From positions 200,365 through 264,364 of the forward strand of contig CANBBP010000001.1 of NCBI GenBank assembly GCA_947366895.1: DNA of 64,000 bases. The letters are read 5' to 3'. Position numbers and translations under genes: made by a program. Source of the DNA: an uncultured Clostridia bacterium (GTDB lineage Bacteria; Bacillota; Clostridia; Christensenellales; UBA1242). Shown here piece after piece: positions 32,204 through 60,560 of the stretch. Below the pieces are notes generated by a model. It saw only the letters and a list, made by a program, of their open reading frames with translations. It searched no databases and was not told the DNA's origin. Position 1 is the first letter of the stretch, and the number at the start of each line of letters is the position of its first letter.

Positions 32204-33106
32204 TTAATTTAATGCTCCAGACATAATTCTAAATTTAGAATTATTATTCCATATTTCCAATATTTTATCAAAGTTTCTATCTGGATCTAACAATAAGTTT
32301 GCTAATTCATCCAATTCCTTATACTCTTCTTCTGATAATTCAAAATTCTTTTCTTTTATAAATTTTGGTAAATGAAGAAAGATTGTTTCATTATTCATAA
32401 GACAATGAAAATCATAAAACAACGAACGCAAACTTGCTTTTATCCCAAATACTGGCGGAGCTGATGAATAAATAATTTCATCCTCTTTATATTTACCCTG
32501 TCTTATGCCTAAATATGCCTCTGCACCAAAAATAAATTTATCTCTAGGAATATCATTAATATCAAAATTTAATTCATGATCTGGACAATGTTCATCAGCA
32601 TCAACTAATATCCATCTATTTTTATTTTCATCAAAATATTCTGTTATCCAATGGTCATAATTTTTTCCATCAGTTTTAATATATGTTCCATAACCACTTC
32701 TTACTCTTGCAGAATAACCCTTTGCCTTTAGAATACTTGTCAATAAAATAGCTTGTCCTCTACAAGTAATATGAATTTTATCTTCAGCCTTCCTATTTAT
32801 ATTATAATTAATATCTTTCCTTAACAATTCATTTAACATGGCTGAAGCAGTAGGAAATAAATCATCTTCATAATTTAATCTTGTAATTGGAACTTTTGTC
32901 ATGTCTCCCCAAAAACACTTATTTTGTTTTCTGATTTCAGAATTTTTATAAGCAATTGGGTGAATTATTTGCTTTCTTTGGAGAATACATAATTCATCAA
33001 TATCATCAGTTAATTTTTTTGCAAAATAACTATACAAACCTAAATGGGTATAAATACTTGTTTGCTTGTAAAAATCTTTAATTTTTTTATTCACCACATT
33101 AATCAT
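32204..33106 (-). CDS. transglutaminase-like superfamily Cys protease-fold protein
   Basis: Candidate Cys-His-Asp triad in canonical order and spacing: ITCRGQAILLTSILKAKGYSARVRSGY ... DHWITEYF ... RWILVDAD. 300 aa. Confidence 0.7.
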   Translation of the reverse strand: MINVVNKKIKDFYKQTSIYTHLGLYSYFAKKLTDDIDELCILQRKQIIHPIAYKNSEIRKQNKCFWGDMTKVPITRLNYEDDLFPTASAMLNELLRKDINYNINRKAEDKIHITCRGQAILLTSILKAKGYSARVRSGYGTYIKTDGKNYDHWITEYFDENKNRWILVDADEHCPDHELNFDINDIPRDKFIFGAEAYLGIRQGKYKEDEIIYSSAPPVFGIKASLRSLFYDFHCLMNNETIFLHLPKFIKEKNFELSEEEYKELDELANLLLDPDRNFDKILEIWNNNSKFRIMSGALN

Positions 33107-33686: not shown

Positions 33687-33729
33687 TGTATTATACCTCC
33701 TCGTAGTTTTTATCTTTACTGACACTAAA

Positions 33730-42611: not shown

Positions 42612-45600
42612 TTAAGTTACTTGAATTAATTCTACAAAACAATATAAAATTTTGTTTGCATTAATGTCATTATCAATTAAAGCAGAACTAATTACACTTT
42701 TTAAATTAAATGTATTAGATGTTATAGAAACCTTTTTGTAGAAATAGTCTCCGTTTACATCTCGACCTGCAATAACAAGTTCATCACCTTGAACGTTGGA
42801 GCCATTGGCATAACCTAAAGTTACAGAACTAAAATCACGAACAGTTATTCCATCTTCAGATAATTCTTTATTTACATTAACCCCATCTGCAGAAATAACA
42901 ATAAGATTAGAGCCATTTCCTTTAATTAAAATAGAATTACTAATTAGTTCACCATTTTTCCAAATTAAAGGTTTAAATCCGTTTGAAGCAGAAATATTTG
43001 AAAATTGGGAAGAATAAGCTCTATTAATTTCTTCTTCAGGGTTTTCTGCAATACCGCTTGTTTCATAATAGCCTATAGCATCACAAATATAATTTTGACT
43101 ATTATATATTAGATATTCATCTTTACTAAAGCCTCTACCACGAGAGAAACCTATAATACCGCCAACATGAGCATTGTTTTCGTACTTACTATTAGCAGTC
43201 ATTCTACCATTATTAACACAACGAGATAAAATACCATTAGTTTCAATCATAGCAACTATTCCGCCTAGTCTACTAATTATATGATTATCAAAATCCTGAC
43301 AAGGTTCTAGGTATCCATTAAAGTAAGCATTTGAAATATAAGAATTATTCATATAACCTACAATTCCACCTACAAAATCATATTGATTTGTAAATGTCTT
43401 AACAATTCCACTGCTTTTAACACTTTCAAACTTAACTGTTTCAAGTGCATATCCAACAACACCACCTGCATAACTTCTTGAAGCATTTGATTTTGTTACA
43501 CCTGCAATATTAACATCACTAAAAGCACATTCAATTGTGTTTGGAATATTGTCTATATTAATATTGCCATCATCATTAATAGTTTTCCCTGCAACATAAC
43601 CTGCCACGCCACCTATATAAACATTTCCACCTTCTGAGAATGCACCTAAACCTATCTTTGATTTATCATCACTATCAATAACTCCTTCCGGTTTGCCTTC
43701 GGCATTTCGTTTTTCAACAACTTGATTATAATAAGGTTTTATATCTATATATCTTGCATATTTTGTAGATGTTGAACCTTCTTTTTTGTTATATGTTTTT
43801 TCTACATATACATTATTTAATATATAATCTTGACCTGTCATAGAGCCTATAGCTCCACCAACAAATATAGCAGAATTTGAAGTTACTGATATTGCTGTAG
43901 AAACATAAACATTTTCAATAGAAGTGTTAATACCTCTACCTACTATTGCTCCTGCATAAACATTAGTTTGATTACTACTTGAAACAATTTTAATAAATGA
44001 ATCAGTAATATCACCATTTACAATTTTTGCACCATTAGTATAACCAAATAATCCACCATAATTAAGCACTGAACTATCTATTGTTAAGCCCTTAATTCTA
44101 TGGCCATTCATATTAAATATTCCTTGGAATTGATATACTGAAGTTGAGCCTATAGGTGTCCAATATTTTCCGCTTAAATCTAAATCATTTAATAAAATAA
44201 ATTCAGCATTTGCAGTTAATAAACTTCCATTATTTACATTTGAAGATACCCATGCAAGTTCTTCTTCAGTAGCAACAAGATAATAAGTTTTTTTATAGCC
44301 TATACTATCGGAATTTTTATCTTTATAAAGACTTACCATCGTTTCAGTTATAATGCCATCATCTATATATCTTTGAACATAAATTGCGATATCTTCAACA
44401 TTTTCATAATTAATAGCAACAAGTGCTTCGCTTTCAGTGTTTTTCCAGTTGCCACCTAATCCACGAATTGAAGGATAATAAACTCCCTTAACAGGCTTGT
44501 TTAATGTATATTCATTCTCTTGAGTCCAAATTGAACTAAGATTATTATTATCATCAATCAAGTTTTCAAAAAGAGGTTTGTCTTCTTCAGCATTTCCTGT
44601 TGGTAAAATAATTCGTAAATATTCACCATTTTCCTTTACGCAATAAATTCTAGGATCTATTTCAGCAGTAGCACCAGAACCATCTACAAAATTAGATGCT
44701 AAATTAAATACATTTATTAATGAACAATTTCCTTTTGCAATACCTGCAATCACATTTCCGCAATCTCTAGGATTGCTACCTTCATATAAGGCAGTAGTAA
44801 AGATATTACCATTAACATTATTATAACTGTTACTAATTGAAGAATTTTCTAAATTACCTACTAGTCCACCAGTTGCCACTACTTCACTTGATACTCCTGT
44901 TGTTTTAATAGGTAGATTATTAAAACTATAATATATACCTTTTGTTATGTCATCAGTTTCAACCGAAGAACAATTTAAAGCATTATAAACAATTCCACCT
45001 GCTCCTTTGATACCAGAAATAACAGCATCTAAACTTTCTTCTGCTCCATCGGTATATATTCTTGAAATTCTAGTATTTTTAGCTTGATAAACAAGACCTG
45101 AAGCATAAGAGACATTTTGAACGATAGTATTTTCTAATCCAACATCATTAATAGTTGCATTTTCACAAACACCAAATAAGCCACCGAATTCTTTATTTTC
45201 TATAAATGCTCCATCTATAGTTAAATTTCTAATAACATATCCATTACCATCAAATGTACCTTTAAAAGGATTGTCAAGAGTACCTATAGGTGTCCAATAT
45301 CTATTTGATAAATCAATAAAGTTAATTAAACGAATAGTAATGTTTGTAGTATCTAATTCACCTGAATTTATTGCACTTGATAGATATGCTAACTCTTCTG
45401 CAGATTTAACAACAAAACTTCCATTTTCTTGTGCAACTTCTTCCTGTTTATCACTCCACATTGAAGAAGCATTATTATCTTTTAATGAAGGATACCATGT
45501 ATCATAGAATTGTTGCCAAACACCTTCGCCTGTTTCTTCATTAACAAAATTCCATTCGCTATCATAAGTATTTTTATTTTTTAAACTAGTTATTAATTTA

Positions 45601-48600
45601 GGATAATTAGAATCTCCATCCTCAGTATAAAAATCTTTACCTTCTTCATCAGTTTTATTTTCATCAAGTAAACAATAAGCTTTATAAATAGTATTACCAC
45701 TATAAGCAGAATCTCTTAAATAATAGTTTGATGTAAATTGCATATTAAAGTTTGCATAACCTGCTATTGCTCCTAATCCATTATAGAATTTTTCAATAGC
45801 AACAATACTTATGTATCCTACATTTAAACTTGTATTAACAGATAATTTATTTTCGGTTCTAATATTTCTAAATATAATTTCTCTACCTGAAGAAACATCT
45901 TCATAATAAGAAGCCCCAACAATACCACCAACGTATAACCAACTGCTACTTGTAACTTGAATATCACCTGAATTATAGCAATCGTTAATTTCTCTACTTC
46001 CTCTAGTAATATTTGTTCCGCCTGCAACACCACCTACTATAACACTTGCAGTTCTTCTAGTAATTGTATAAACCTCTATATTATTTGCATTATAACTACG
46101 TTCTATATTAGCACTTGTAGAACCTACTACACCACCAATTGATATAAATGAACTGGAAGTTGTACTTAGGTTGAAGTCTATTTTACCTTCATTTCCACAA
46201 TTTATAATATCATCTTTTGCCCAACCCACAATTCCACCAACAAAGGCCGAAGCAGTATTTATGTTACTTAAACCAACACTATATATATTGTTATATACAA
46301 TACTTATAGTTGCATAATTTTTGGAATCTACAACTTGAGTTTGTTTTTGAGTTATACCTACTATTCCACCGACATTTAATAAATGAGCATTAGAATTTAT
46401 GGTTATATTTCCATAATTATTTAAGTTAATAAAGTTATTACCAATTAAATCTATATCACCAACAATTCCAGAAACATTAAGTTCAATTTTAATAGAACTT
46501 GAAGAATAGTTAGTACTTGTATTTACTGCACTAATATCTCCAAAGTTAGTTAAACCACTAAACATATAATTAGTAACATCACTTTCGATATGTCCTATTA
46601 CTCCACCTAAATTAATTTGTTGATTTTGATTAAAATCAATATTTAAGTGGTCAATATCACCATAGTTTACACTATCTATAATATTTATAGTTTGAACCCT
46701 ATTTGTAGTAATTATTTTACCTATTATTCCACCGCCAGTTTCTTCAGCAGTTACATTATTACGATTTAGCACATTTTCAACGTTTGTTGTTCCTTCTGCT
46801 ATTGCAATAATTCCACCTGCAGTTACACCATAAATATCTCCACCGAAAGTTGATAAATTAATAATAGATGCATTTCTTACATATCCAAATAATCCGCCTA
46901 TTGAACCTGTTAATTCGTTAGATATTTCATTAACTGTTGTATATTTAATAGTGTGACCATTACCATTGAAAGTTCCTTCAAATGCATTTTCTTCACTACC
47001 AATAGGTACCCAGAACTTACCACTTAAATCAACATCATTTTCTAGAGTAATAGTTTTACCAACAAACCCATTACCAGCATTAACCATATTAGCAAACATG
47101 GCAAGTTGTTCAGGAGTTGATATTGTTAAATTGCCTGAATTAATTTCTTCTTCAGTCCACTCTTCACTTGCAAAAGTATTCCATAAATAAACATCAGCAT
47201 ATTCTAAGTTTATTAAATATTTATCAGCTTCATCGTATGCGGCATTTTTAAAGAAATTATCAGGTACTTTCCAATATCCATTACCAATAAAACTATTATA
47301 AATAACTTGTTTACTACTTAAGTCTAAAAGATAAGTATAATTTAAATTACTACCATTTGGAGTTCTTACACTAATATAATTTTTAGATGTATCGTATTCA
47401 TAGGTAATATCTATTGAAGAAACTTCCCAACATCTTTGAGTGTTTTCAGTATTATCTAAATGTAATTCTTTTTGTGTAACATTTATTGATAGTTTTATTA
47501 TTCTAGTATTGTTTGGTAAAGAAAAATCAATATTGCCATAAACCATACGATAATCAATAGTATCTGCATTACCTGTTGATTCAGTAATATCACCTAAATT
47601 GTTTATTTCTAAACCATTTATATAAACACTTGTAATATTTTGTAAATCTTCAAAACTCTTAAACGTATACTCATTATTTACTTTACTACCTGTAGAACGA
47701 GAAGTATTTATTACAACATCGTTTATACCATTTGTAGGATATTGAGTAGTTTTTACAAACTTTTGTAATCTTCTATAACGAATATAATATAAATCTCTAT
47801 TTTCTTGTTCATAATAAATTTTAAATTGAGATTCACTTCCTATTTTTTCAAAAACACCAATATCATTTTTAATATAAATTATTCCAAAATGTTGAATATA
47901 TTCATCATAGTCTTTTGGTATATTGCTAATAGTCCACTCTATACCATTATCTATCCAGAAAGTATCTGTAAAATCTATTTTAACATAAAAGTCTTCAGGA
48001 TTTTCAACATTCCATTTTATCAAATCAAAAATATAATCAACGCAAGGAGTTCCTATTTTATCGCCACCCTTATTTTCAGTTTCCTTCATTGTATAACTTA
48101 TATTAGTGTTAGTATCTTCATAATAAGCTTCTCTAGTTGAATATGGGAAAACTGCTTGACTTCCATCAGTACCTGTTAAAATACTTTTAATACCAGTTCT
48201 AACATCTGCAATAATATCCATTGTATTTGAAAAATATGCAACTTTAAGATATTTTTGGGGAGTTACAGCATTAGTTGAAGTATAAAGAGTGTTTGTATAA
48301 AAATTAAAATTATCAAATTCAATAAAATTATCTTTTGAAGCTGAATTTGCAATTAAACCTATAAATCCACCAATAGGATTATTATTAATTAATAAATATT
48401 CATATTGCCAATAATCAATAGCTAACCAGTTATTTGCAGCTACGCAATTTCTAATTATGGTTTTTTCTTCACCATCAACTGAAGTTGTTGCAATGGCTTC
48501 TTCACTATAACCCGATTTTATAACAAGCATGCTATCATTAGCTGTTCCTATAAGTCCACCTATAATGCCTTTAGACATTACAGAACCTGTAGCAATAACA

Positions 48601-51600
48601 TTTTCTAATGTGCCTGTAATCATTCTTCCTACGGCACCACCAGAAATTTTAGTATTATTATCTCTTACATCAACTGTAGAAATTGAATTGGATAATAATC
48701 CACCATTGTTAAGTCCTACAAGGCCACCACTTGCAACAGCACTATCGCTACCTGCACTAGAACGGAATAATAAATTTTCAATTAAATTTGATGAAGCAAC
48801 TTTAACTGATGAATAACTTTCTAATTCTCTATAACTTACTGAACTACTATAAATCTTGCCTCTATTTTCGCCAACAAGACCACCTGCATAAACACTGGCT
48901 TCAATATAATTATTTGGAGTATTTGCAATGTCGACATTAGCATAATTTACTATACTATCTCTACCAACAAGACCAAATACCATACCAACAACACCACCAG
49001 TAATATGAACATTACCATAGGTGTGAATATTACTTGCGTTATATTTTCGTTGAGTAGAATCATCTATAACTTCGTTACAATCTAATATACCCGCTACTCC
49101 GCCTGCATAAGCAATATTTTTTATATCTTTATTTTCAGTATAAAGAACATTTTTTACATTTCCACTTGATACATCTTTTGTAGCATTAACATTTGCAGAA
49201 ACAGTAATATCTTTAATTATAACGTCACCAAGAATAATACCAGCAAGGCCACCAGCCACATTTTTGCCTTGAATATAAGCATTCCTTGAATCCATACCAT
49301 TAATATTAATATTGTTTAGTATAAGTTTGGTGCCTGTATTTTTTGTTTTATCTGTATGAATTATACCAGCTAATGCTCCTACTCTTTCATGTGTATTAGA
49401 TAAAACTTCCACAATATTTAAAGAAAGGTTTGAAATAACAGTATTAAAGTTTTTAATATCAGGTACAGTACTTATTGAACTAAATAATCCAAAGGCTTCT
49501 TGGTCATCTACAATAAAATCATCACCTGGAGTTATATTTCCATTTAGGTAATTTACATAAGAAATTGATATTTCATTTAATGACATGTAATTTCCTTGTA
49601 AGCAACCTTGGAAATTTGAATAAACTGTTTTAGGTAAGAAATATCCTTCTTTACCAATAAAGTCAATATCTTTAATAATTCTATAAAAATTACCTGCTGT
49701 ATTTTCTTTTAAGTAATATTCAAAAGACTTATAATCGTTAATAATTTTAGGATTTGTTCTTGCACCTTTAGGAGCAGTATTTTGAGAACTACTACTATAA
49801 TAATAAGATGCGTTTTCCAACTCTTTATAATCTATATGACTAATAATGCCTTTATCATTAAACTCTAATTCAATAGTATCATTTGCTCTAAAATTATTAT
49901 CTTCAATATGAGATGAGCCTTCTTGATAACTAACATCTAACACTTCAGTACCATATTGAGCTGAAATAAGTTTTTTACTTTTTATTTCACCATTTTCTAA
50001 ATCTATTTTAAATACAATGGTTATAGCCTCATTTTTTTCGGTTGTATTTGCTTTTTCTATTGTTTCGCTATTTTCATTAGAACCTTTTTTCTTAGAGAAA
50101 TAATAAGTAAAAGTATTTTTTCTATTATCTTGAATTGTATAGAAAATCAATTCATTTTCTGTTAAATATGGAATATCTAAGCCTTTTGGATTTGAATAAT
50201 AATTTGTTCTTATTCTATCTAAACCAATATTAACCGGAGTTGAAGAAACAAAATTAACAACTTGTTTTTCATCATAATATGTGTATATATCTTTTTTGTA
50301 ATTTTTGGTTTTACCTAAGTATTCACATTGACTAATAGTTTTAATTAAAGTTGAAACTATAACAGGCTTACCTTCTATAATAACCCATGTATATCCATCA
50401 ACATAACTATAAGTTTCTTCACTATCAGCATAAGTTAAATCATCATTATAAACAAGAGATAAATCAAAACTTACAAAATTAGTATGAGTAGAAAATTCAT
50501 CAAGAGTTAATTTTTTTGCTGTCTTTTGTTCATTTGTACTTGCCCATTGAACATTAGTCCAAGTTTCACCAGTCAAGTAATAGCAATTATTTAACACCCC
50601 ATTTATGGTTATTTTATAATCTGCAGAATTAGTACCAGCAAATGGTGAAGCAATTCTACTATTATCCGAACTTGATTTGTAACTTATTGAATAACATCTT
50701 GAGATTTCACTTGATGAAGTTTCTCCATACACAAAGCCAGCTAAGGTACTTGATGATTGTAAAGATATGTTTGAATAACAATCAGAAATTTTTCCACTAT
50801 TATTATAAGCAAAGCCACCCACATCACCTTTTGCAACTATACCTAAACCTGTATTTCTTATATCATTGTCATTATTTGCCCTATAACCTTGAACATAGCA
50901 CTCATTTATTGTAGCACTATTGTTATAAACAAAGCCTGCAGTAACATCACTTGATTCATTTATTATAGAACTTTCATTTAAGAAAGTAGAAACTATCTTT
51001 CCGTTATTAATTCCAACTACACCGCCTGTTATACCATAACAAGAAAAATCAAAATTAAATATAGAAGAATTTGTAATATATCCTGTAACACTATTTGTAG
51101 CAACTAAGCCACCATTTAAAGCTTGAGGTATTGTTCCTACATTAACATTATTATTAAGAACAATATTTAATTTTCCAGTTACTTTACAATTTGTTAAAAC
51201 ACCATCATTTGTCCCCGCTATTCCTCCAAATGTCATTGATTTTACATACAATTGTGTAACATTTAAAGGTGAGGAACTAGGCACTAGTCTTGTTGCTCCA
51301 TTTGTATTTATAATCCTATCGGTGAAATAAACTGTAACATTGCATAGTAAGGATTTTTCACTAACATTATCAAATAATCCTAATACACATTTATCATCAT
51401 AGCTACTATCATATCCAAAACTTGTAATATAGATATTATAATTATTACCATCTAAACTAGCAATAGCAGTTGATATAGGTGTGTAGTTGCTTAACTCGAT
51501 ATCGTTTACTAATCTATAATCAAAGCCTTCTTGCATATTTAAAAATTCTTCAGGAGTAGAAATAGGAATAGCATTTATTAAATCTGATTTATAAATAAAG

Positions 51601-54600
51601 TTTAAAATAAAATTATCTTCAAATTTAAATGTAGTATCAAAGGTTGAATCTATCATTGAAATAGAATAATGATAAACATTTGGTATACCATTAACTTCTA
51701 CTAACTTATTACCGCCACCCTCATTGTTTGTATAAGAAATGTTAGTACGCAATGAAATTTTAGAATTTCTATCTATTTGATAGCCATACACAGCAATATA
51801 TTCATTATATTGTTCTACACCAAAAGTAGAATTGTTGTAATCTTTGCTAACTTGTAAGTAACCTGAATCATTATTATTTGAATCGTAGAACCATACACCA
51901 GAAACTTTAGTTGAAGCACTATTTTCTTTATAGTTATAACTTGCCTTTGCTATAGCATTTGATAACTGAATAAAATATCTTGAGAAGTATCTTTCAATTT
52001 CATAACCGCAAGCTGTAAGATATTTATATAACATATCACTTGCATCGTTAGTTTCTCCATGATATTTATACCATCTTGAATACCAGTTATCGCCATCTGC
52101 TGTATTTACTAAAGATTCATCATATAATACATCTAAATTTACTAATAATGGAGTTGTTGTAGACATAGGAATTGTCATATAACCGTTTGATACATTCTGA
52201 GCTGTTACACCAGTTACAGTAAATAAAGTAACCACAAAAGTTTGACTAAATGAATATGTCCTTTCATTATCTCTTATAGTAGCAGTTATAGTAAAATGCT
52301 TTCCTATACAATTAGTAGAAAGAACATTGTCAGCCGACATATTACCATCATATTTAAATACTCTTAATTCGTATTCACCTTCATCATTTTTATAAGGTGT
52401 TAAAACATCTTTTTCATTTTGAGTTAAAATATGGTCTTTAGAAGAAACATTCCATGTAATATCCCCTTCATAATTAACTAAATTTATTTTCATATTTTGT
52501 TTAGTATTTATAGGTAGATAATATAAATCATTAGAACCTTTTAATTTTTCATCAAAAGTGTAAGTAATTGAAGGTTGAACAATAGTTGTAAAATTATAAG
52601 TGTATGTTTCAATTATTGTGCCATCACGATTTAAGAATTCTACATAAAAAGTAAAATTAGTTTTATCAGGAACATCAGTACCAGCAAGCAAACTAAAGAA
52701 ATATATTTTGCTATAAGAATAGGTACCATTTGTATTTAATAAGTAACTATCTTGACCACTTGACTTTTCAACTTTCATAATATCAGACATGTCAAGGATA
52801 GAACCTGAATCTGGATAATTTGTTAAGAATTGACCAGATGCTCCAGTAATATCATAACTAAGTTGAGTTACCAAGAGAGGATATGAACTAGGATTTCTAT
52901 AATAAACCCTCATACTATTATAATTACTAAAATATGGATAAACTTCTATAGAAAGCACTCCAACCTGACCATTATAAATAACGGAATTTTTATTTGGATT
53001 TTGTGGGAAATCGCTAATCTTAGTATACATAGTGCCATAAACTTGATTAATTTTATCCTGACTAACGATAACAAACTTTAATGAAGTTTTTATTGTTGGG
53101 TCGCTAACAGCCCAAAATTCAAACATATATAATAAATCATTTTCCACAGCATTAAGTTTATCTTTATAATTAATAGTATATGTAGCAGAGATACTTTCTA
53201 GAGTTTTATTTGTATCATCAGTGTAATTATAAGTAATGTTACTTTTTACTATAGATAATAAATTATCAGCATTTGCTATTGAAAAATTATCTAAAATTTC
53301 ATCAAACTCATAATCTGTAAATAATGTTACAGTAAAAGTATGAGTTTCTAACTGAGAAATTTCCACTGATTGAGAAACATCAATATTATTTTCTAAAATA
53401 ATATCTGTAGCCCCTTTAATTAAAGAAAGGGTGAAGCTACCAGAAAATTTTTCTAACATTATTGTAGACTCTATAGTATTAAAAATAGATTTTATATATG
53501 GTATATATTCTATCTTTAATTTATGATTTTCTGCCATTGCAATTAAAGGAGTTATAACAGGATTTCTACCGCTTGATATATCAACATACCAGTATTCACC
53601 ATCATATAGCCAAGTATCACCATTAAATTTAAATAAACTATTAATATCTACTTCATCTAAGTCTTCTAAAATTTTATCTAAACTAGTAATGCCATTATTA
53701 GCATCTTCTTCACTAACTCCAGAAGCAACTCTAAATCTTATTCCCACATCATTGGAAGATTTTAATTTAGCATCTTTTTCATGCTCTAAGTCACGATAAT
53801 AATCTACTTCAACAAATAAAGTTTGAGTACGAGATTTTAATAATTCAATATCTCTTCCATTTAAACTAATGTTAGCGGAAATATTGTCATAAACATTAAC
53901 TTCTCTAACTCCGTATTTAACAACAATAAAAATTTCAGCTTTATAATTTGCATTTAACTTAGAAGATATTGTTAATGTAACCTTACCCTCACCCATTATT
54001 TTTAATGTTCCATTAGAGTTAATAGATATAACCTTAGAATTACTTGTTGCGATATCAAGCCTTGCACTTTTACTTGTGGTAGGTAAAACATACAAATTAA
54101 TAAAATCTAAGAAACTAACAATATTAAGTTTATTAATATCTTCAGCAAGATATCTAGTTAAATAATCATAGTTAAAGAACATAATTAAGGAATTGTCTTT
54201 ATCTCTTATATAACTAATAAACTCTTTTTCATCACTTTTAACAATAGCAGAAACATTAATAGGAGTGGTTGCAAATAAAGGTTCTATTCTACCAGAAGAA
54301 AAGGTTATTGTTAAATAAGGTAATCCGCTGTTTGTTCTTGAATCAATCTCCCAGCCATTAGTTGCAGTAAAATTAGAAATAATTTGTTCTGCTGTTATGT
54401 TTTGATTAGGACTAATACTATCCCTAATAGTAACAGCATTTGCTTTTGTGTCACTAGCAATATAGTAATAATAACCTTGAATATTAGGATTAATTAAATT
54501 ATGACTTATTCCATTATTTGCATAGCCATATCCTATAACAAATACATCACTTATATTCATGGTTGAGTTATTAGGTTGTAGTATAAATAAATCGGCTGTT

Positions 54601-57600
54601 TCTTCTCCACGAACATTTACAAAACTTGAACTATTTTTTATAGATGTATTACTTGATAGTCCAATAAAACCGCCAACATTATTTCCAACAATATCATAAC
54701 CAACTTCTTCAACTTTTGTATCTACTAATGGCATACAATCAAAGTAACTAACTACATAACAATATTGAATATTTGCAAATGCCGAGTTGCCTGCAAAGCC
54801 ACCAACATTATCTCGACCATTAACAAAAATTCTAGCATAATTTGAAGATGTTGCATAATTTTCGGCACTAACATAATTTAAATTTATTGTAGAAGTTGAA
54901 TTAACCCCATTAATGCTTCCAATAGCACCCCCAACAAAATCATTACCTGATACATTAGCAATTGAATATGAACTATCTATACTATAAACATCTTCCGCAT
55001 TATAATCTTTATCATATTCAGCACTACCAACAAGACCACCTACATAATTGTATTTTGGAGCATTAATACTACCTTTTATTGAAACATTTTTTAATAGACC
55101 ATAATTTGTTCCAACTGCTCCACCTATACTTGAATTTGTTATATAGCCTTGAACATCTACATCTATATCTGCAATAATATTTAAATTAGAATTAAACCCT
55201 GCATCATTAAAAGTAAATTCTACATCTTTATCGGTAACAACACTACCTAAAATTTCACCGCGATTTATACCAACAAGACCACCAATAACATAATTGGAAT
55301 TAATATTTTGAGCAACTAATCTTACTGTTCCACTAAGTCCAACATTGGATAATTTATCATTTACAATTCTGCCTTTGTTTTCACCAACTAGCCCGCCTAT
55401 TGTAGTTTTATAACTTGTAGTAATAGTAAAATTATCAAAAGAAGTTATACAATTTTCAATATAGCCATTATTAGTTACACTAATACCACCAAAGGTATAA
55501 GTATCGTTTATAGAAGGTCTAAACACACCATAACCTACAGTCATATCTAAAACTCTTCCAGCAAGACCAATATTTGAGATAAATCCAGAATAATTTTTAT
55601 TTTCTATGCCTTCAAAAGATATTCCTGAAACTTTGTAAAAGCTATCAACAATTTGATTTGTTTTAACATTTTCATAAGAATACTTTCCAGATAACTCTCC
55701 GTTAAATCCATAAGCATAGTAAACTTCTTCACTTGAATATGTGGTAGCTTCTAAATATGTTTGACCATCATAAATATATAGGTTGCTATTAGAAAATTCA
55801 TCTTGAGACACCTTGCCTACTAAGTAATAGTTCCCAATAGATTCCCAGTTTTCAGTTGAATTAACTAAAATGTCTTTAGTTAAAACATATCTTTTAATTA
55901 CACTATCTTCATTTAAAGATATTTCTTTTAATTCATCATAAGAAGATATTTGATAAGGTATTTTAACTCCATCTGCTACAGTCATATAAAATACTAAACA
56001 ATGAGTCCAAAGTTCTATAACTTTATTTAAATTTGTTGTATAAGCATAATAATTTGTTCCTTCAACAAATTCTGTTGCTAAAATATAATCTGCACCATGT
56101 TTAGTATAAAATATACCATCAATAAATTCTTCTTTAGAAATTGCTACTTGCTTATAAACTTTTTGAGTAAATATATCATAATCATTTTTTGTAATTATTT
56201 TATCTTCAGGCATGACAATAATTACAGATTTTCCAGCCACATTAGGAGCAACCTTTAAATTAAATTGAGAAGATGTTTTACCTGGCTCAATTATTGCTTC
56301 AGAAACACTACTTATATTATTGCTATCATTACCAACTAAATCATAATAAAAATTTCTGCCATCTATAGTAAACATGTCATAAGTTTTTACTAATAAATTT
56401 TTATTAAAAGAAGTATCTTTAACAACTTGTATGTCAATTTGTTTATCTTGTGAATAACCTTGTTTGTAATAAAGTTGTTCATCTGTGTAAGTAACAAGAG
56501 TGGAAACATTTTCGGCATCTACAGTCCTAAAAGAATTAGTTTGAGTAAACCACATTCCTAATTGTTCTATTTGAATTGAATAGAATATTGAACCCACTAC
56601 ATTACTAAAATCATAATTTTCGTTTAATTTAAACCAGTAATATCCTTCCCCATCAGGATACTCATTAATAAGATTTAATAAACTATTTTCATCACTTGAA
56701 TTTGTAACAAGTCTACCATTAGAACAATTAAAAACCATTTGTTGAATATTATTAACAAAAATAAGTATTCTTCCATTGTTTTTAAAAGTATATGTTGGTT
56801 CACTATCTTTGCTATCTGCCAATGTTTGTATTTTTAAACCAAACACTGATGGGTCATTTATATCTTGTGATTTTGATAAATAAGATATTGTATTTGGATT
56901 ATAAACTAATCTGCTTGTCACATCAGTTTTAATAGTTTTTATAGGAACATAACTTTCTATTTCAAAAGACTTAGTTATAACAGAACCATCTAAATTAGTT
57001 AATTTTATTACAATAGTATAAAGTTTTCCAACAGAGTTATCCGTTCTAAAAATAAACGAGCATGCATTCTTATTACCATCACTAGCACAAGTAAACATAA
57101 GATCGGCATCTCCGATAATATTTACAGAAGAAGATGCTTCACCCTTATAATCAATAGAATAACTTCTTAAAAGAGTGCCACCATTTAAAGAACCCAAATA
57201 TGCAGAAAACTCAATAGAAAATTGATTTGATGTTACAGGAGTGGTAGATAAATTTAAATATATTTGTTTACGAACTTGAACAACACTAGAAACTATATCG
57301 TTTTCCTCATTAACAGTATATTTACCTATACCTGCAGAAACTGAGGTTGAATTTAATCTTATATTAAAATTTGATATAGGATTGTAAACATTAACAGCTA
57401 TTGCATACTTAACATCTTTTAAATGGGAAACGGTAATATAAACAAACTCTTGACCTATACCATGAGCAGTAATATAAAAAACATTTTTTTCATTTTCGTT
57501 TCTCTTTATTTCAAGAACTTTTTCATTACTACTTGTAATAGTTATATTATTTAAACTTGCTCCAGCAGGTAAATAATTTAAAATAACAGTTGCATTAAAA

Positions 57601-59525
57601 CCACTTGATAAATCAAGATTAATGTTATCTTTACTTACTAGCGAATCATCAAAACTCATTTTACCACTAAATGATTCTACAACTTTTTCACCCGTTACAG
57701 GGTCAATAACATATTCACCAGTAGTACTATCAACTTTATATTGTGAATAGGAATAATCAAAATTATTAAATGCTTCAACTCCTTGCACAACATTCATTTT
57801 AATACTTGCTTTTGCTTGCTTGTCCTCTCTATCAAAAGGTTTTTCAGCAGTTACTACAAGATAAAATATATCGCCTAATTTAACATTATCCTCTTGAATT
57901 ACATTAGGAACAAAATAAAAGGTTGAATTGCAATCATAAACTCCAGCAAAGTTATCAATAACATTTACTAAATTAGTGCTTTGACCAACACCTTTTTTAA
58001 CTGTAAAGTATCTAGATAAACTTGATGTTATTTCTTCACATTGTAATGTAATAGGATTATATTTAAATAAAGATAAAGTAAATTTTTTATTTGCTTGTAA
58101 AATAGAATCGGTATTACCTACATTAATATTAAATGGAGTTCCATCAACATCACCAGAAGAATTAATATAAACTTCACTATCATATGGAGTTTTATTAGGA
58201 TTTTCTACAATAGAAAAGTTTTCTACAACATCGCCATTTATTGAAAAACTAGTAATTAAATTATCATTTTTAACAACAAAATCATTTATTAAAGGATAAT
58301 TATCAACTTTATAATTATTATATTCGCAAGAAAACTTAACTGCATATGTACCTGATGGATATCTATCATTTAGAGTAGTTTTTGTTGATGAGCAAACTTT
58401 TATAAAACATAAACAATAGGTAGCATTTTTATAATACCCATTAGTTTCTGCATCATATATAGAAAGAGTTTCTCCATCTTGTGCAAAATATTGTGTTGTG
58501 AAATTACTATTAGGAAAATAAACTGGTAAATCGCTATCTCTTAAATAATTAAAATTAACTTCTTCACCATTTGACCTTACTTTTAAAATAATATCTTTAT
58601 CACTAAGACCTTCTATATTAACAATTAAATCATTAATATCTCCGCTTGTAATCAAGTTTTCAGGCACCTTTGCATCTTTTGCACTTGTTCCGTTATAAAT
58701 TTCAAAATTTGTTAAAGCATTAACCACATTTACTTTTGTTATTGCAGTTAAATTGTCCCCCACAGGATTATCATAAGTTGCCATAACATAAAAGTTTTTC
58801 TTATTTAAATTACGGATATCAAAAACATCTAATACAGAAGTTCTTCTATTAAATCTTAAACCATTAGCAAGTAACTGGCTATCACTCCATGAAATAAAGA
58901 TATTATCTTTATCTAATTCTCCAATACTATAACTTATGTTTGTTAAAGAACTTGTTTCAGGAGTAAGCAAAATAACTTCATTATTTAAAGTTAAAGTACT
59001 ACCTTCTGCACCAACAATAGCAAGACTTTTATCTATAAAAGCCATACTTGAAGCAACTTCAACTACATCAATTACAACTTTATCTCTTTTTCCACTTTCT
59101 ACATTAATAAAAGTTAATTCCGTTCTACCCTTCGAATTTGCAGTTATTTCTCTCTTTAACCCTGATGAAGTAGGAATTACATTATTTGAAACACTTAAAA
59201 TTTCCGTACTTAAACTATGAGTTACTTGATAATTAAAATCATTAGGAGTACCTTCAAAAGTTGCTTGTACAGTTGCTGTTGTTTTTGTGTTTGTATCACT
59301 TACTATATAAAATGTATAAGAACCATCTAAGTGGTCATCAAAAGCACCACCATTTTTTAATGTTACTCGCTTGTAACCATTATCTAAATCTTCAACCTTT
59401 GTTGCTCCATCATAACTAACTTCAATAGAAAAAGTTAGGTTGGCATATTTATCTCCACAACCATAAAAAAGACCACAACACACAAGGCATGTTAATATAA
59501 AAAATATACTAAAAAATCTTTTCAT
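42612..59525 (-). CDS. giant (5,637 aa) secreted, probably lipid-anchored surface protein: Ig-like/beta-sandwich regions plus six GLUG-motif beta-helix modules
   Basis: A single uninterrupted 16,914-nt ORF. GAGGG lies just upstream of the ATG. The N-terminus is MKRFFSIFFILTCLVCCGLFYGC. I counted about 47 GG[LIVF][VIA]G (GLUG-type) turns by eye. Six entry motifs resembling EELxxxxxxVNxGxxxxxxxxLxxDxDLSxxxWxPIGxxxxxFxGxFxGNGHxI are present. A Big_2-like segment reads VISINSNGTLKIMGEGKVTLTISS. No LPXTG, SLH or enzyme domain recognised. Confidence 0.85.
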   Translation of the reverse strand: MKRFFSIFFILTCLVCCGLFYGCGDKYANLTFSIEVSYDGATKVEDLDNGYKRVTLKNGGAFDDHLDGSYTFYIVSDTNTKTTATVQATFEGTPNDFNYQVTHSLSTEILSVSNNVIPTSSGLKREITANSKGRTELTFINVESGKRDKVVIDVVEVASSMAFIDKSLAIVGAEGSTLTLNNEVILLTPETSSLTNISYSIGELDKDNIFISWSDSQLLANGLRFNRRTSVLDVFDIRNLNKKNFYVMATYDNPVGDNLTAITKVNVVNALTNFEIYNGTSAKDAKVPENLITSGDINDLIVNIEGLSDKDIILKVRSNGEEVNFNYLRDSDLPVYFPNSNFTTQYFAQDGETLSIYDAETNGYYKNATYCLCFIKVCSSTKTTLNDRYPSGTYAVKFSCEYNNYKVDNYPLINDFVVKNDNLITSFSINGDVVENFSIVENPNKTPYDSEVYINSSGDVDGTPFNINVGNTDSILQANKKFTLSLFKYNPITLQCEEITSSLSRYFTVKKGVGQSTNLVNVIDNFAGVYDCNSTFYFVPNVIQEDNVKLGDIFYLVVTAEKPFDREDKQAKASIKMNVVQGVEAFNNFDYSYSQYKVDSTTGEYVIDPVTGEKVVESFSGKMSFDDSLVSKDNINLDLSSGFNATVILNYLPAGASLNNITITSSNEKVLEIKRNENEKNVFYITAHGIGQEFVYITVSHLKDVKYAIAVNVYNPISNFNIRLNSTSVSAGIGKYTVNEENDIVSSVVQVRKQIYLNLSTTPVTSNQFSIEFSAYLGSLNGGTLLRSYSIDYKGEASSSVNIIGDADLMFTCASDGNKNACSFIFRTDNSVGKLYTIVIKLTNLDGSVITKSFEIESYVPIKTIKTDVTSRLVYNPNTISYLSKSQDINDPSVFGLKIQTLADSKDSEPTYTFKNNGRILIFVNNIQQMVFNCSNGRLVTNSSDENSLLNLINEYPDGEGYYWFKLNENYDFSNVVGSIFYSIQIEQLGMWFTQTNSFRTVDAENVSTLVTYTDEQLYYKQGYSQDKQIDIQVVKDTSFNKNLLVKTYDMFTIDGRNFYYDLVGNDSNNISSVSEAIIEPGKTSSQFNLKVAPNVAGKSVIIVMPEDKIITKNDYDIFTQKVYKQVAISKEEFIDGIFYTKHGADYILATEFVEGTNYYAYTTNLNKVIELWTHCLVFYMTVADGVKIPYQISSYDELKEISLNEDSVIKRYVLTKDILVNSTENWESIGNYYLVGKVSQDEFSNSNLYIYDGQTYLEATTYSSEEVYYAYGFNGELSGKYSYENVKTNQIVDSFYKVSGISFEGIENKNYSGFISNIGLAGRVLDMTVGYGVFRPSINDTYTFGGISVTNNGYIENCITSFDNFTITTSYKTTIGGLVGENKGRIVNDKLSNVGLSGTVRLVAQNINSNYVIGGLVGINRGEILGSVVTDKDVEFTFNDAGFNSNLNIIADIDVDVQGYITNSSIGGAVGTNYGLLKNVSIKGSINAPKYNYVGGLVGSAEYDKDYNAEDVYSIDSSYSIANVSGNDFVGGAIGSINGVNSTSTINLNYVSAENYATSSNYARIFVNGRDNVGGFAGNSAFANIQYCYVVSYFDCMPLVDTKVEEVGYDIVGNNVGGFIGLSSNTSIKNSSSFVNVRGEETADLFILQPNNSTMNISDVFVIGYGYANNGISHNLINPNIQGYYYYIASDTKANAVTIRDSISPNQNITAEQIISNFTATNGWEIDSRTNSGLPYLTITFSSGRIEPLFATTPINVSAIVKSDEKEFISYIRDKDNSLIMFFNYDYLTRYLAEDINKLNIVSFLDFINLYVLPTTSKSARLDIATSNSKVISINSNGTLKIMGEGKVTLTISSKLNANYKAEIFIVVKYGVREVNVYDNISANISLNGRDIELLKSRTQTLFVEVDYYRDLEHEKDAKLKSSNDVGIRFRVASGVSEEDANNGITSLDKILEDLDEVDINSLFKFNGDTWLYDGEYWYVDISSGRNPVITPLIAMAENHKLKIEYIPYIKSIFNTIESTIMLEKFSGSFTLSLIKGATDIILENNIDVSQSVEISQLETHTFTVTLFTDYEFDEILDNFSIANADNLLSIVKSNITYNYTDDTNKTLESISATYTINYKDKLNAVENDLLYMFEFWAVSDPTIKTSLKFVIVSQDKINQVYGTMYTKISDFPQNPNKNSVIYNGQVGVLSIEVYPYFSNYNSMRVYYRNPSSYPLLVTQLSYDITGASGQFLTNYPDSGSILDMSDIMKVEKSSGQDSYLLNTNGTYSYSKIYFFSLLAGTDVPDKTNFTFYVEFLNRDGTIIETYTYNFTTIVQPSITYTFDEKLKGSNDLYYLPINTKQNMKINLVNYEGDITWNVSSKDHILTQNEKDVLTPYKNDEGEYELRVFKYDGNMSADNVLSTNCIGKHFTITATIRDNERTYSFSQTFVVTLFTVTGVTAQNVSNGYMTIPMSTTTPLLVNLDVLYDESLVNTADGDNWYSRWYKYHGETNDASDMLYKYLTACGYEIERYFSRYFIQLSNAIAKASYNYKENSASTKVSGVWFYDSNNNDSGYLQVSKDYNNSTFGVEQYNEYIAVYGYQIDRNSKISLRTNISYTNNEGGGNKLVEVNGIPNVYHYSISMIDSTFDTTFKFEDNFILNFIYKSDLINAIPISTPEEFLNMQEGFDYRLVNDIELSNYTPISTAIASLDGNNYNIYITSFGYDSSYDDKCVLGLFDNVSEKSLLCNVTVYFTDRIINTNGATRLVPSSSPLNVTQLYVKSMTFGGIAGTNDGVLTNCKVTGKLNIVLNNNVNVGTIPQALNGGLVATNSVTGYITNSSIFNFDFSCYGITGGVVGINNGKIVSTFLNESSIINESSDVTAGFVYNNSATINECYVQGYRANNDNDIRNTGLGIVAKGDVGGFAYNNSGKISDCYSNISLQSSSTLAGFVYGETSSSEISRCYSISYKSSSDNSRIASPFAGTNSADYKITINGVLNNCYYLTGETWTNVQWASTNEQKTAKKLTLDEFSTHTNFVSFDLSLVYNDDLTYADSEETYSYVDGYTWVIIEGKPVIVSTLIKTISQCEYLGKTKNYKKDIYTYYDEKQVVNFVSSTPVNIGLDRIRTNYYSNPKGLDIPYLTENELIFYTIQDNRKNTFTYYFSKKKGSNENSETIEKANTTEKNEAITIVFKIDLENGEIKSKKLISAQYGTEVLDVSYQEGSSHIEDNNFRANDTIELEFNDKGIISHIDYKELENASYYYSSSSQNTAPKGARTNPKIINDYKSFEYYLKENTAGNFYRIIKDIDFIGKEGYFLPKTVYSNFQGCLQGNYMSLNEISISYVNYLNGNITPGDDFIVDDQEAFGLFSSISTVPDIKNFNTVISNLSLNIVEVLSNTHERVGALAGIIHTDKTKNTGTKLILNNININGMDSRNAYIQGKNVAGGLAGIILGDVIIKDITVSANVNATKDVSSGNVKNVLYTENKDIKNIAYAGGVAGILDCNEVIDDSTQRKYNASNIHTYGNVHITGGVVGMVFGLVGRDSIVNYANVDIANTPNNYIEASVYAGGLVGENRGKIYSSSVSYRELESYSSVKVASSNLIENLLFRSSAGSDSAVASGGLVGLNNGGLLSNSISTVDVRDNNTKISGGAVGRMITGTLENVIATGSVMSKGIIGGLIGTANDSMLVIKSGYSEEAIATTSVDGEEKTIIRNCVAANNWLAIDYWQYEYLLINNNPIGGFIGLIANSASKDNFIEFDNFNFYTNTLYTSTNAVTPQKYLKVAYFSNTMDIIADVRTGIKSILTGTDGSQAVFPYSTREAYYEDTNTNISYTMKETENKGGDKIGTPCVDYIFDLIKWNVENPEDFYVKIDFTDTFWIDNGIEWTISNIPKDYDEYIQHFGIIYIKNDIGVFEKIGSESQFKIYYEQENRDLYYIRYRRLQKFVKTTQYPTNGINDVVINTSRSTGSKVNNEYTFKSFEDLQNITSVYINGLEINNLGDITESTGNADTIDYRMVYGNIDFSLPNNTRIIKLSINVTQKELHLDNTENTQRCWEVSSIDITYEYDTSKNYISVRTPNGSNLNYTYLLDLSSKQVIYNSFIGNGYWKVPDNFFKNAAYDEADKYLINLEYADVYLWNTFASEEWTEEEINSGNLTISTPEQLAMFANMVNAGNGFVGKTITLENDVDLSGKFWVPIGSEENAFEGTFNGNGHTIKYTTVNEISNELTGSIGGLFGYVRNASIINLSTFGGDIYGVTAGGIIAIAEGTTNVENVLNRNNVTAEETGGGIIGKIITTNRVQTINIIDSVNYGDIDHLNIDFNQNQQINLGGVIGHIESDVTNYMFSGLTNFGDISAVNTSTNYSSSSIKIELNVSGIVGDIDLIGNNFINLNNYGNITINSNAHLLNVGGIVGITQKQTQVVDSKNYATISIVYNNIYSVGLSNINTASAFVGGIVGWAKDDIINCGNEGKIDFNLSTTSSSFISIGGVVGSTSANIERSYNANNIEVYTITRRTASVIVGGVAGGTNITRGSREINDCYNSGDIQVTSSSWLYVGGIVGASYYEDVSSGREIIFRNIRTENKLSVNTSLNVGYISIVAIEKFYNGLGAIAGYANFNMQFTSNYYLRDSAYSGNTIYKAYCLLDENKTDEEGKDFYTEDGDSNYPKLITSLKNKNTYDSEWNFVNEETGEGVWQQFYDTWYPSLKDNNASSMWSDKQEEVAQENGSFVVKSAEELAYLSSAINSGELDTTNITIRLINFIDLSNRYWTPIGTLDNPFKGTFDGNGYVIRNLTIDGAFIENKEFGGLFGVCENATINDVGLENTIVQNVSYASGLVYQAKNTRISRIYTDGAEESLDAVISGIKGAGGIVYNALNCSSVETDDITKGIYYSFNNLPIKTTGVSSEVVATGGLVGNLENSSISNSYNNVNGNIFTTALYEGSNPRDCGNVIAGIAKGNCSLINVFNLASNFVDGSGATAEIDPRIYCVKENGEYLRIILPTGNAEEDKPLFENLIDDNNNLSSIWTQENEYTLNKPVKGVYYPSIRGLGGNWKNTESEALVAINYENVEDIAIYVQRYIDDGIITETMVSLYKDKNSDSIGYKKTYYLVATEEELAWVSSNVNNGSLLTANAEFILLNDLDLSGKYWTPIGSTSVYQFQGIFNMNGHRIKGLTIDSSVLNYGGLFGYTNGAKIVNGDITDSFIKIVSSSNQTNVYAGAIVGRGINTSIENVYVSTAISVTSNSAIFVGGAIGSMTGQDYILNNVYVEKTYNKKEGSTSTKYARYIDIKPYYNQVVEKRNAEGKPEGVIDSDDKSKIGLGAFSEGGNVYIGGVAGYVAGKTINDDGNINIDNIPNTIECAFSDVNIAGVTKSNASRSYAGGVVGYALETVKFESVKSSGIVKTFTNQYDFVGGIVGYMNNSYISNAYFNGYLEPCQDFDNHIISRLGGIVAMIETNGILSRCVNNGRMTANSKYENNAHVGGIIGFSRGRGFSKDEYLIYNSQNYICDAIGYYETSGIAENPEEEINRAYSSQFSNISASNGFKPLIWKNGELISNSILIKGNGSNLIVISADGVNVNKELSEDGITVRDFSSVTLGYANGSNVQGDELVIAGRDVNGDYFYKKVSITSNTFNLKSVISSALIDNDINANKILYCFVELIQVT
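43130..44276 (-). repeat. giant ORF module 6: entry motif (VATEEELAWVSSNVNNGSLLTANAEFILLNDLDLSGKYWTPIGSTSVYQFQGIFNMNGHRIKGLTIDS) plus GLUG block (about 8 turns)
   Basis: The entry motif is encoded at 44071-44276. Turns include NYGGLFGY, FVGGAIGS, YIGGVAGY, YAGGVVGY, FVGGIVGY, RLGGIVAM and HVGGIIGF (the last at 43141-43172). Confidence 0.55.
44700..45410 (-). repeat. giant ORF module 5: entry motif (VKSAEELAYLSSAINSGELDTTNITIRLINFIDLSNRYWTPIGTLDNPFKGTFDGNGYVIRNLTIDG) plus a short GLUG block (about 5 turns)
   Basis: The entry motif is encoded at 45211-45410. It shares the 18-nt string cctataggtgtccaatat (45283-45300) with module 6 (44149-44166). Confidence 0.55.
45700..47123 (-). repeat. giant ORF module 4: entry motif (ISTPEQLAMFANMVNAGNGFVGKTITLENDVDLSGKFWVPIGSEENAFEGTFNGNGHTIKY) plus GLUG block (about 11 turns)
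   Basis: The entry motif is encoded at 46941-47123. Turns include SIGGLFGY, TAGGIIAI, TGGGIIGK, NLGGVIGH, NVGGIVGI, FVGGIVGW, SIGGVVGS, IVGGVAGG and YVGGIVGA. Confidence 0.55.
48330..49742 (-). repeat. giant ORF module 3: entry motif (INDYKSFEYYLKENTAGNFYRIIKDIDFIGKEG...) plus GLUG block (about 9 turns); boundaries approximate
   Basis: Turns read as VAGGLAGIILG, YAGGVAGIL, ITGGVVGMV, YAGGLVGENRG, ASGGLVGLNNG, ISGGAVGRM, IIGGLIGT and PIGGFIGL. Confidence 0.5.
50470..51563 (-). repeat. giant ORF module 2: entry motif (ISTPEEFLNMQEGFDYRLVNDIELS...) plus GLUG block (about 6 turns); boundaries approximate
   Basis: Turns read as TFGGIAGTNDG, NGGLVATN, ITGGVVGINNG, VTAGFVYNN, DVGGFAYNN and TLAGFVYGE (the last at ~50700-50750). 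Confidence 0.5.
54300..55949 (-). repeat. giant ORF module 1: entry motif (ISSYDELKEISLNED...) plus GLUG beta-helix block (about 8 turns); boundaries approximate
   Basis: Turns read as TFGGISV, TIGGLVGENKG, VIGGLVGINRG, SIGGAVGTNYG, YVGGLVGS, FVGGAIGS, NVGGFAGN and NVGGFIGL (the last at 54661-54680). Confidence 0.5.
59457..59525 (-). other. signal peptide with a possible lipobox (L-F-Y-G-C23) of the giant protein
   Basis: MKR n-region, an 18-aa hydrophobic core, then G-C. The -2 Tyr is non-canonical, so lipidation is uncertain. Needs SignalP/LipoP. Confidence 0.55.
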
Positions 59526-59673
59526 ATTCCCTCGCTTTTATAAAGCCAAATTCTAATCAAGCCAACAAATCTTTTTCCAAAATATTATTTTTTCTCTTCT
59601 TATGTATTTAAAATCTTAAGTAATTTTAATTAAATAAATTAACTAAAAATTTTGTAAAATTATGTAATAAGTA

Positions 59674-59702
59674 ATTATACAATATAAAGCATGTTTTGTT
59701 AA
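59674..59702 (-). promoter_or_regulatory. candidate promoter for the giant ORF
   Basis: Minus strand: TTAACA (59702-59697), 17 nt, TATAAT (59679-59674). This gives a ~140-nt 5' UTR. Confidence 0.4.
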
Positions 59703-59708
59703 ACTTTT

Positions 59709-59860
59709 AACCAACTTTTGAGAATAGTTTTTAACTTATTTTTTATTAATCTAATAATTAATAAAAACACAATTTCTTTAAAATAAACAAAATAATAATT
59801 TATTAAAAAAATATTTATTTAACATAATTGTTAATAAAAAACTACTCTCAAAAAGTGGTT
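59709..59860. repeat. 24-nt imperfect inverted repeat pair flanking a 104-nt spacer
   Basis: Arm A is 59709-59732 (AACCAACTTTTGAGAATAGTTTTT). The reverse complement of arm B (59837-59860) is AACCACTTTTTGAGAGTAGTTTTT. 21 of 24 positions are identical. Confidence 0.6.
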
Positions 59861-59868
59861 TAGGTTTC

Positions 59869-59898
59869 GGTTAGAATTAAATTTTTTTAATTCTAACC
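59869..59898. promoter_or_regulatory. perfect 13-4-13 palindrome (possible operator or RNA hairpin)
   Basis: GGTTAGAATTAAA-TTTT-TTTAATTCTAACC. No U-tract follows on either strand, so it is not a canonical terminator. Confidence 0.5.
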
Positions 59899-60013
59899 TA
59901 CTATCTTCTCCACTAAAAACTAAAATTAGTTTTTAATTTTTAAGATGTTTATTAAATTGATTTTTGTAAAAAAAACATTATACAAATCTTACTCATAATC
60001 AATTTAAAAATTC

Positions 60014-60560
60014 TTAATTTCTTTTCCAGTTCATTAAACCATAACCCTTAATAGTTTTATCATTAACACTATAGGATTTGTCATAGCAATAGCCTGGATA
60101 AGCCCAGCCTTTCCCTGGTTGGCTTGTGTTTCCTTCAATTGTGTATACTCTACCATTTTCAACCTTAACGACAATACCTACATGGGAAGCCGTAGCCCCT
60201 GCTATAGTAGGCATAAAGAATATAGTATCGCCAGGTGCAACATATTTATAATGCTCACGAGTAACAACTTGACCAGCAGGAGCAAAGTAACTCTTCCAAA
60301 GATGTCCTGCCCCTAACGTATTGCCAGGTGTAGAATTAGCCTTTTGAGCTTTAATTTCAGGGACCCCATTATAACACCATGAAACAAAGGCTGCACACCA
60401 ATATTGATATTCATTTCCGAAAACTCTCCAAAATTTTTCTCCACCCTTATTACCAATATACTTTCTAGCTTCAGCAACAACAGCTGGATTACCATATCTT
60501 ATGCCTTCTCCAGTTTCTTCATCAACTTCATCAAATGTAACATTTGCCATTGAAGATGGT
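60014..60560 (-). other. CHAP domain of the upstream giant ORF
   Basis: Candidate nucleophile Cys codon TGT at 60395-60397 (WCAAFVSW). Candidate His codon at 60182-60184 (SHVGIV). Polar third residue in TIEGN (Glu codon 60134-60136). A Gly-rich linker GYGGEEGNGGEIGGSTGSGS precedes the domain. Confidence 0.75.

Follow-up and report, generated by a model that had tools for sequence, protein, structure and literature searches.

The 488-nt spacer at positions 59526-60013 of a 64-kb stretch of DNA from an uncultured Clostridia bacterium (hereafter the window, meaning the whole stretch analysed) is, in the reading that we favour with about even confidence, an ordinary junction between two separately promoted surface-protein genes, where gene-end hairpins are followed by a conserved promoter. 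Both genes are on the minus strand. The upstream open reading frame (ORF), with its stop codon at 60014..60016 (minus strand), has GLUG repeats, ends in a CHAP peptidase domain at its C-terminus and extends past the window end at 64000. The downstream giant ORF (42612..59525, minus strand) encodes 5637 aa with a lipoprotein-type signal peptide (…LFYGC) and GLUG-like repeats.

According to this reading, the GLUG/CHAP gene would end at its stop at 60014, and its 3' untranslated RNA would carry a weak A/U hairpin (59935-59914) and then a strong hairpin (59898-59869). The strong hairpin most likely pauses RNA polymerase, terminates weakly, or shields the transcript from 3' exonucleases. Efficient termination is probably lacking there, and some read-through would be possible. 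An A/T-rich upstream region would follow, and then a conserved sigma-70-type promoter, P1 (59702..59674), from which the giant lipoprotein gene would be expressed by way of a leader of about 142 nt that lacks structure, with a strong ribosome-binding site. A 24-nt inverted repeat between P1 and the strong hairpin would be a lineage-specific feature: a neutral inverted duplication, a chance match, or a 23-bp long-range stem in read-through RNA that could act as a processing or insulation site.

A conserved promoter and an unstructured leader

P1 (59674..59702, minus strand) reads TTAACA-17-TATAAT and matches the consensus at 11 of 12 positions. Homologues of the giant protein were collected by a profile search with its first 600 residues, run exhaustively over representatives, which returned 19 homologues at 27-54% identity. 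The contigs of eight homologues were compared; loci L001 and L002 came from a genome scan (L002 at 41% identity). A word-indexed homologue search missed homologues (E-values down to 1e-120) that the exhaustive search found, and its negatives do not amount to absence in this lineage. A search for related loci in metagenomes returned none.

The −35 element, the −10 element and their 17-nt spacing align in 8/8 loci, namely the window and L002, L004, L005, L006, L009, L010 and L011. The aligned promoters have a −35 of the TTAGACA type (TTTAACA in the window), followed after 17 nt by TATAAT or TAAAAT, and the A-tract block just upstream of the −35 also aligns across the related loci. Because seven related loci share both elements and the spacing, we assign P1 as the sigma-70-type promoter of the giant gene. 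The original prediction had proposed aligning the spacer among relatives; the promoter aligns, but outside the promoter region the spacers do not. The closest relative, L001 (76% protein identity), is on a contig that ends 27 nt upstream of the ATG.

The leader predicted from P1 spans 59526..59667 (minus strand, about 142 nt), with the ribosome-binding site GAGGG at 59529-59533 and then the ATG. Folded from the predicted transcription start to the ATG (59668-59520), it is unstructured, with a z score of 0.11. The spacer had been described as densely structured over its 488 nt. Its overall fold does reach a z score of −5.5, but this value is due to 59709-59935, upstream of P1. Since significant folding is confined to that region and the leader scores 0.11, the structure of the spacer lies outside the leader of the giant gene. 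Its position between the upstream stop codon and P1 implies that the folded elements belong to the 3' region of the upstream gene or to a read-through transcript. An intercistronic RNA structure, one of the possibilities raised at the outset, is therefore closest to the evidence, but not as part of the 5' leader of the giant gene, where it had also been placed.

A comparison with L001 (positions 1-30 against window 59526-59570) shows about 14 extra nt in the window (…TTTGGCTTTATAAA…) just 5' of the ribosome-binding site. These form a small GCUUU/AAAGC hairpin.

The palindrome and the terminator position

A perfect 13-4-13 palindrome, GGTTAGAATTAAA-TTTT-TTTAATTCTAACC, is found at 59869-59898, 116-145 nt past the upstream stop codon. 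As RNA it forms a hairpin with a predicted folding free energy (ΔG) of −14.3 kcal/mol (z −5.0) in the gene sense and −16.0 (z −6.5) in the antisense. Its score is reached by none of 300 dinucleotide shuffles of the spacer (0/300), and it is the only significant local hairpin there. The stem of 13 bp, including four G-C pairs, is a stable stem-loop downstream of a stop codon, as expected for an intrinsic terminator. No T/U run follows the stem on either strand: the next sequence is GAAACCUAAACC in the gene sense and UACUAUCUUCUC in the antisense. Both the perfect symmetry and the missing U-tract agree with the original prediction. A terminator scan of the gene strand of the spacer found none, and neither did a separate hairpin-plus-U scan.

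For four relatives (L002, L004, L010 and L011), the DNA at hand extends to the end of the preceding gene across a long spacer of about 300-595 nt, a length similar to the 488 nt of the window. In each, the sole local hairpin that beats shuffling (0/150 each) is a canonical terminator just after the preceding gene, composed of an A-tract, a G+C-containing stem and a T-tract. Judged by its position, the palindrome sits in the slot of this canonical terminator. The preceding gene of L010 itself encodes 4267 aa; that of L002 shows no detectable homology to the CHAP domain of the window.

Canonical terminators occur elsewhere in the window at 1263, 24594, 31753, 33336 and 42553, and the last of these, an A-tract/hairpin/U-tract terminator at 42553-42589, closes the giant gene. 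Because the genome does use canonical terminators, including after the giant gene, the missing U-tract is a true departure from the norm. The stable stem-loop downstream of a gene (13 bp, four G-C pairs, ΔG −14 kcal/mol) resembles the intrinsic terminators of low-G+C Firmicutes, but it has neither a U-tract after the stem nor an A-tract before it, and its A/T runs are inside the hairpin, by the loop. The one oddity of the junction is that its gene-end hairpin, unlike the canonical terminators found at this place in relatives, lacks a U-tract.

Between the palindrome and the upstream stop codon, a second hairpin at 59914-59935 (minus strand) is a perfect 10-2-10 palindrome with an A5 – 3-bp core – U5 arrangement. 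A weak A/T hairpin had been noted at 59915-59934; it is present, with slightly wider limits, but it is not significant (ΔG −8.6, z −2.3; score reached by 24/150 shuffles). Possibly it is what remains of a canonical terminator that has degenerated.

A similar layout is observed in the fusA-tuf spacer (25850-26121), where hairpins at 26050-26078 and 25987-26002 have no U-tract after them in the gene sense and a strong internal promoter, TTGACA-17-TAAAAT, lies at 25943..25915. In both spacers the stop of one gene is followed by hairpins with no U-tract behind them, then by a strong internal promoter and the next gene. The spacer studied here differs in being longer and in adding the 24-nt long-range repeat.

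The perfect dyad symmetry of the palindrome would also suit the operator of a dimeric regulator, as the original prediction preferred. In a related form of this proposal, the arms of the 24-nt repeat (at −36 to −60 and about −164 to −188) would be protein sites that control P1 by looping the bendable, A/T-rich DNA between them. From the coordinates, 128 bp or about 12 helical turns separate the centres of the arms, and the proximal arm lies where class-I activators and UP elements act and overlaps conserved sequence. Furthermore, GGTT/AACC motifs cluster at the ends of both elements. The palindrome, however, lies 167-196 bp from the −35 of P1, on its upstream side, and not at or close to the promoter as an operator would be, and the arms have no internal dyad. 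Neither palindrome nor arms occur in any related locus compared, no regulator gene is adjacent, and the nearest helix-turn-helix gene (ArsR family) is 38 kb away. Pairing at all 13 positions would, in our view, fit a hairpin kept by selection better than a protein site. We regard protein sites of either form as unlikely, and the operator set envisaged earlier is not supported, its third half-site being at chance level, its palindrome distant and non-recurring, and no regulator gene lying next to it.

The question of recurrence was addressed by counting half-sites over the window. The 13-mer half-site occurs 7 times at up to 2 mismatches, where 9.5 are expected. The count for the 8-mer AATTCTAA, complement included, is 21, with an expectation of about 16. 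The third half-site copy that had been pointed out, AATTCTAATC at 59549-59558, is indeed present in the leader between promoter and ribosome-binding site, but at these chance-level frequencies it is not a meaningful copy. The full palindrome recurs neither in the window nor in any related locus, and a wider search for copies of palindrome or arms in JGI metagenomes, IMG/VR, plasmids and phages was likewise negative.

Palindromic operators of dimeric repressors, such as those of CIRCE/HrcA (TTAGCACTC-N9-GAGTGCTAA), would share with it a perfect inverted repeat, TTAG…CTAA outer bases and an intergenic location. The core sequence differs, and unlike those operators the palindrome is far from the promoter, does not recur, is not conserved and lacks a cognate regulator gene. 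None of the CodY, ARG box, CIRCE and dif/Xer sites seems to fit the spacer.

A perfect 11-0-11 palindrome, ATAATTCTAAATTTAGAATTAT, is also found at 32223-32244, in the last codons of a transglutaminase-like ORF (32204..33106, minus strand). It shares the half-sites TAATTCTAA/TTAGAATTA with the palindrome at 59869-59898, in the opposite (converging) order. This sharing may be a coincidence, as the 8-mer and 9-mer frequencies are at chance level.

The 24-nt inverted repeat

The proximal arm of the inverted repeat is located at 59709-59732. The half of this arm nearer the gene overlaps the A-tract stretch that immediately precedes the −35; this stretch is conserved in relatives and resembles an UP element. 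The distal arm at 59837-59860 is an inverted copy of the proximal arm and is separated from the palindrome by 8 nt. Distal arm and palindrome are bridged by three tandem GGTT hexamers, GGTTTA GGTTTC GGTTAG (59857..59874, plus strand), and AACC/GGTT stands at the ends of both arms and of both palindrome halves; from the composition of the G-poor spacer, GGTT is expected about 0.3 times. The inter-arm segment (59733-59836) is 104 nt of almost only A/T. Taken alone it does not fold significantly (z −1.0 and −1.3), and it contains neither a promoter nor a terminator that would depend on orientation.

The arms are complementary at 21/24 positions. Of the three mismatched positions, two turn into G·U pairs in minus-sense RNA, which brings the count there to 23/24 pairs; the other strand keeps 21/24. 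The arm length, complementarity and 104-nt interval given in the original prediction are correct, but it counted one extra G-U where there are two. In the gene sense, the 171-nt region with this predicted stem of 23/24 pairs has a ΔG of −40.1 and a z score of −5.9.

We compared the repeat with shuffled and natural sequence. Its score is reached by 0/300 shuffles of the spacer, and among repeats with gaps of less than 150 nt it is the best in the window. A scan of the 64-kb window at the same score returned three other repeats scoring as high or higher, with gaps of 452-623 nt, all in coding sequence. Because these coding-region repeats exist, the inverted repeat is only modestly surprising at the level of the window. 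No arm sequence is found elsewhere in the window at up to 3 mismatches, and the four related spacers contain no significant repeat of this long-range kind.

The long-range repeat could accordingly be a functionless chance match in very A/T-rich DNA, with only the palindrome hairpin and the promoter being functional, and we consider this a serious possibility, although somewhat doubtful. The rate in coding regions predicts, by simple arithmetic, about 0.5 such repeats in the intergenic DNA of the window; the repeat is missing from the relatives, and no functional read-out is predicted for it. Against chance stand the shuffle result, the first rank among short-gap repeats, and the conversion of two of three mismatches into G·U in the transcribed sense, for which the chance is about one in four.

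If the stem does form in read-through RNA, it would be comparable with RNase III processing stems, such as those flanking rRNA or at intercistronic sites of phage and bacterial operons. The predicted 23-bp duplex is of substrate length and encloses 104 nt between cistrons. It matches no known Rfam family.

The repeat could also be the relic of a small mobile element, a 152-bp unit like a miniature inverted-repeat transposable element (MITE), with 24-bp terminal inverted repeats around an A/T-rich core; the palindrome would then be unrelated or an associated extragenic repeat. Terminal inverted repeats around a short non-coding core are what such an element would show, and the repeat is lineage-specific. 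If the repeat boundaries move by one base, a 3-bp TAA duplication is possible, but a 3-bp A/T duplication is weak and not distinguishable from chance in DNA of 17% G+C. An IS30-family element is active in the same species, but the arms are unlike the sequence around the IS30-family gene of locus L003, where a fuzzy search found no copy at up to 5 substitutions. No second copy was found in the 64-kb window, the 11 loci, JGI metagenomes, IMG/VR, plasmids or phages. Taken together, a MITE relic seems to us very unlikely.

The IS30-family transposase gene (HTH_38 and rve domains) occupies positions 1-1470 of L003 (Logan SRR28172667), which derives from a strain of the same species. It lies between the gene for a 95-aa protein and the region upstream of rpoB (window about 41750-42190), where the window has no insertion. 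The ends of the IS30 element were considered as a source of the arms and rejected on the fuzzy search; the sequence towards the end of the IS30-family gene is partly similar to them, but this similarity falls below the 5-substitution threshold.

Another reading takes the 104-bp segment as a phase-variable inverton, flipped by a recombinase encoded elsewhere to switch the giant surface lipoprotein. The 24-nt arms, 104 nt apart, are within the 10-40 nt described for inverton repeats (PMC11892184). Their score exceeds that of all 300 spacer shuffles, and a giant surface protein is a typical target of phase variation. The assembly of L001 breaks within the same intergenic region, as mixed-orientation sites can cause, which is weak evidence. 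A comparable repeat geometry is known from the cwpV switch of C. difficile, where two imperfect repeats of 21 bp, with 195 bp between them, precede the gene for a large cell-wall protein and the invertible segment does not include the promoter; recombinases of the RecV type can act on sites far from their own genes (PMC2784873).

The effect expected of an inversion is not predicted here. With near-identical arms upstream of P1, inversion leaves P1 and the proximal upstream sequence essentially as they are. Inverted in silico, the segment neither makes nor removes a terminator-like hairpin or a promoter better than 9/12; only 9/12 promoter matches, which are at chance level, are altered, and no orientation-dependent element results. 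A 104-bp interior is short for recombinase synapsis, which also counts against inversion. The absence of a significant long-range repeat from the four related spacers and the three equally strong chance repeats in coding regions of the window argue in the same direction.

The invertible segment had been proposed together with two counterpoints, that the best promoter lies outside the repeat and that the window has no recombinase. Both counterpoints stand: no recombinase was found by Pfam among the ORFs of the 64 kb, though recombinases can act from afar. No positive evidence emerged for the segment itself, with the repeat upstream of P1 and an in-silico inversion that lacks a read-out, and we hold an inverton to be quite improbable.

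Two specific switch designs were rejected as well. A cwpV-type orientation-dependent terminator was sought by folding both orientations, neither of which forms one, and an orientation-dependent promoter is neither gained nor lost on in-silico inversion. The likeness to the RecV-dependent cwpV/flgB switches of C. difficile lies in imperfect repeats (about 21-24 bp) that precede the gene for a very large cell-surface protein in a member of the Clostridia, with no adjacent recombinase gene. In cwpV, by contrast, the switch follows the promoter and a terminator is formed in the OFF orientation, whereas here the promoter is downstream of the repeat and no terminator or better promoter arises in either orientation. 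The interiors also differ, 195 bp in cwpV and 104 bp here.

More generally, the arms could be functional DNA sites, forming either a miniature inverton (152 bp including the arms) or a looped operator pair, a combined possibility that we rate as distinctly unlikely. The miniature inverton might be an unusually small one with a read-out that is neither promoter nor terminator. In the looped pair, the arms might loop their A/T-only interior, with the adjacent palindrome as an accessory site.

Several observations weigh against the ordinary gene junction that we favour. The long repeat abuts both the promoter and the palindrome, from which it is separated by 8 nt, and this abutment, together with the shared GGTT/AACC ends, looks more organised than chance. 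The hairpin lies 116 nt past the stop codon, compared with about 10-45 nt for the terminators of the relatives. It lacks the U-tract that a terminator would be expected to have, and its perfect 13-bp symmetry would also suit a protein site or a recombination core. In addition, the relatives whose spacers were compared have protein identities of 27-54% and are too distant for testing the conservation of the repeats.

Genomic context and meaning of the junction

The window is part of a contig of 385,941 bp, and the closest genomes are two metagenome-assembled bins labelled 'uncultured Clostridia bacterium'. Nearly all genes of the window are on the minus strand. Pfam identifies the housekeeping genes for S12, S7, EF-G and EF-Tu together with dnaE, whiA, murB, uvrC, greA and pfk, while rpoB and rpoC were assigned from ORF translation, size and position, not via Pfam. 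Five ORFs of 95-512 aa have no Pfam match (1309-2541, 17773-18915, 29935-31473, 33378-33758 and 42186-42473). The 95-aa ORF forms a one-member cluster in a collection of 15 billion proteins.

The G+C content across 2-kb windows ranges from 22 to 38% and is mostly 25-29%. The upstream GLUG/CHAP ORF (60014-64000) has 36-38%, above the 25-29% of most of the window, which is likely explained by its glycine-rich GGxVG repeats rather than by foreign origin. At 50% clustering, the family of the giant lipoprotein is small and numbers 19 representatives, with up to 5930 aa and a conserved N-terminal region of 600 residues; several homologues have 5,600-5,900 aa. Apart from a borderline GLUG match, the giant protein is mostly without Pfam match.

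No known RNA was recognised in the spacer. A search of the whole window returned no Rfam family at the gathering score, and at a permissive threshold the best matches over the spacer have E-values of only 2.7 to 5.5. A tRNA/tmRNA search found none, and no ORF in the spacer exceeds 23 aa.

Should either version of the arms as functional DNA sites be true, the giant adhesin-like gene would be switchable. Inversion in particular would add a giant adhesin-like gene to those known to vary in phase, one whose switch is atypically small, and would be of moderate interest for research on phase variation in gut bacteria.

As it stands, the result is of little import. Its useful outcome is a negative one, namely that the striking repeats do not make an operator set and that the predicted structure is outside the leader of the gene. 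What the junction offers is a view of how transcription units are laid out at the locus of a giant surface protein in a gut lineage that is uncultured and low in G+C: the promoter is conserved, the region upstream of it is long and A/T-rich, and the hairpin at the gene end is non-canonical.

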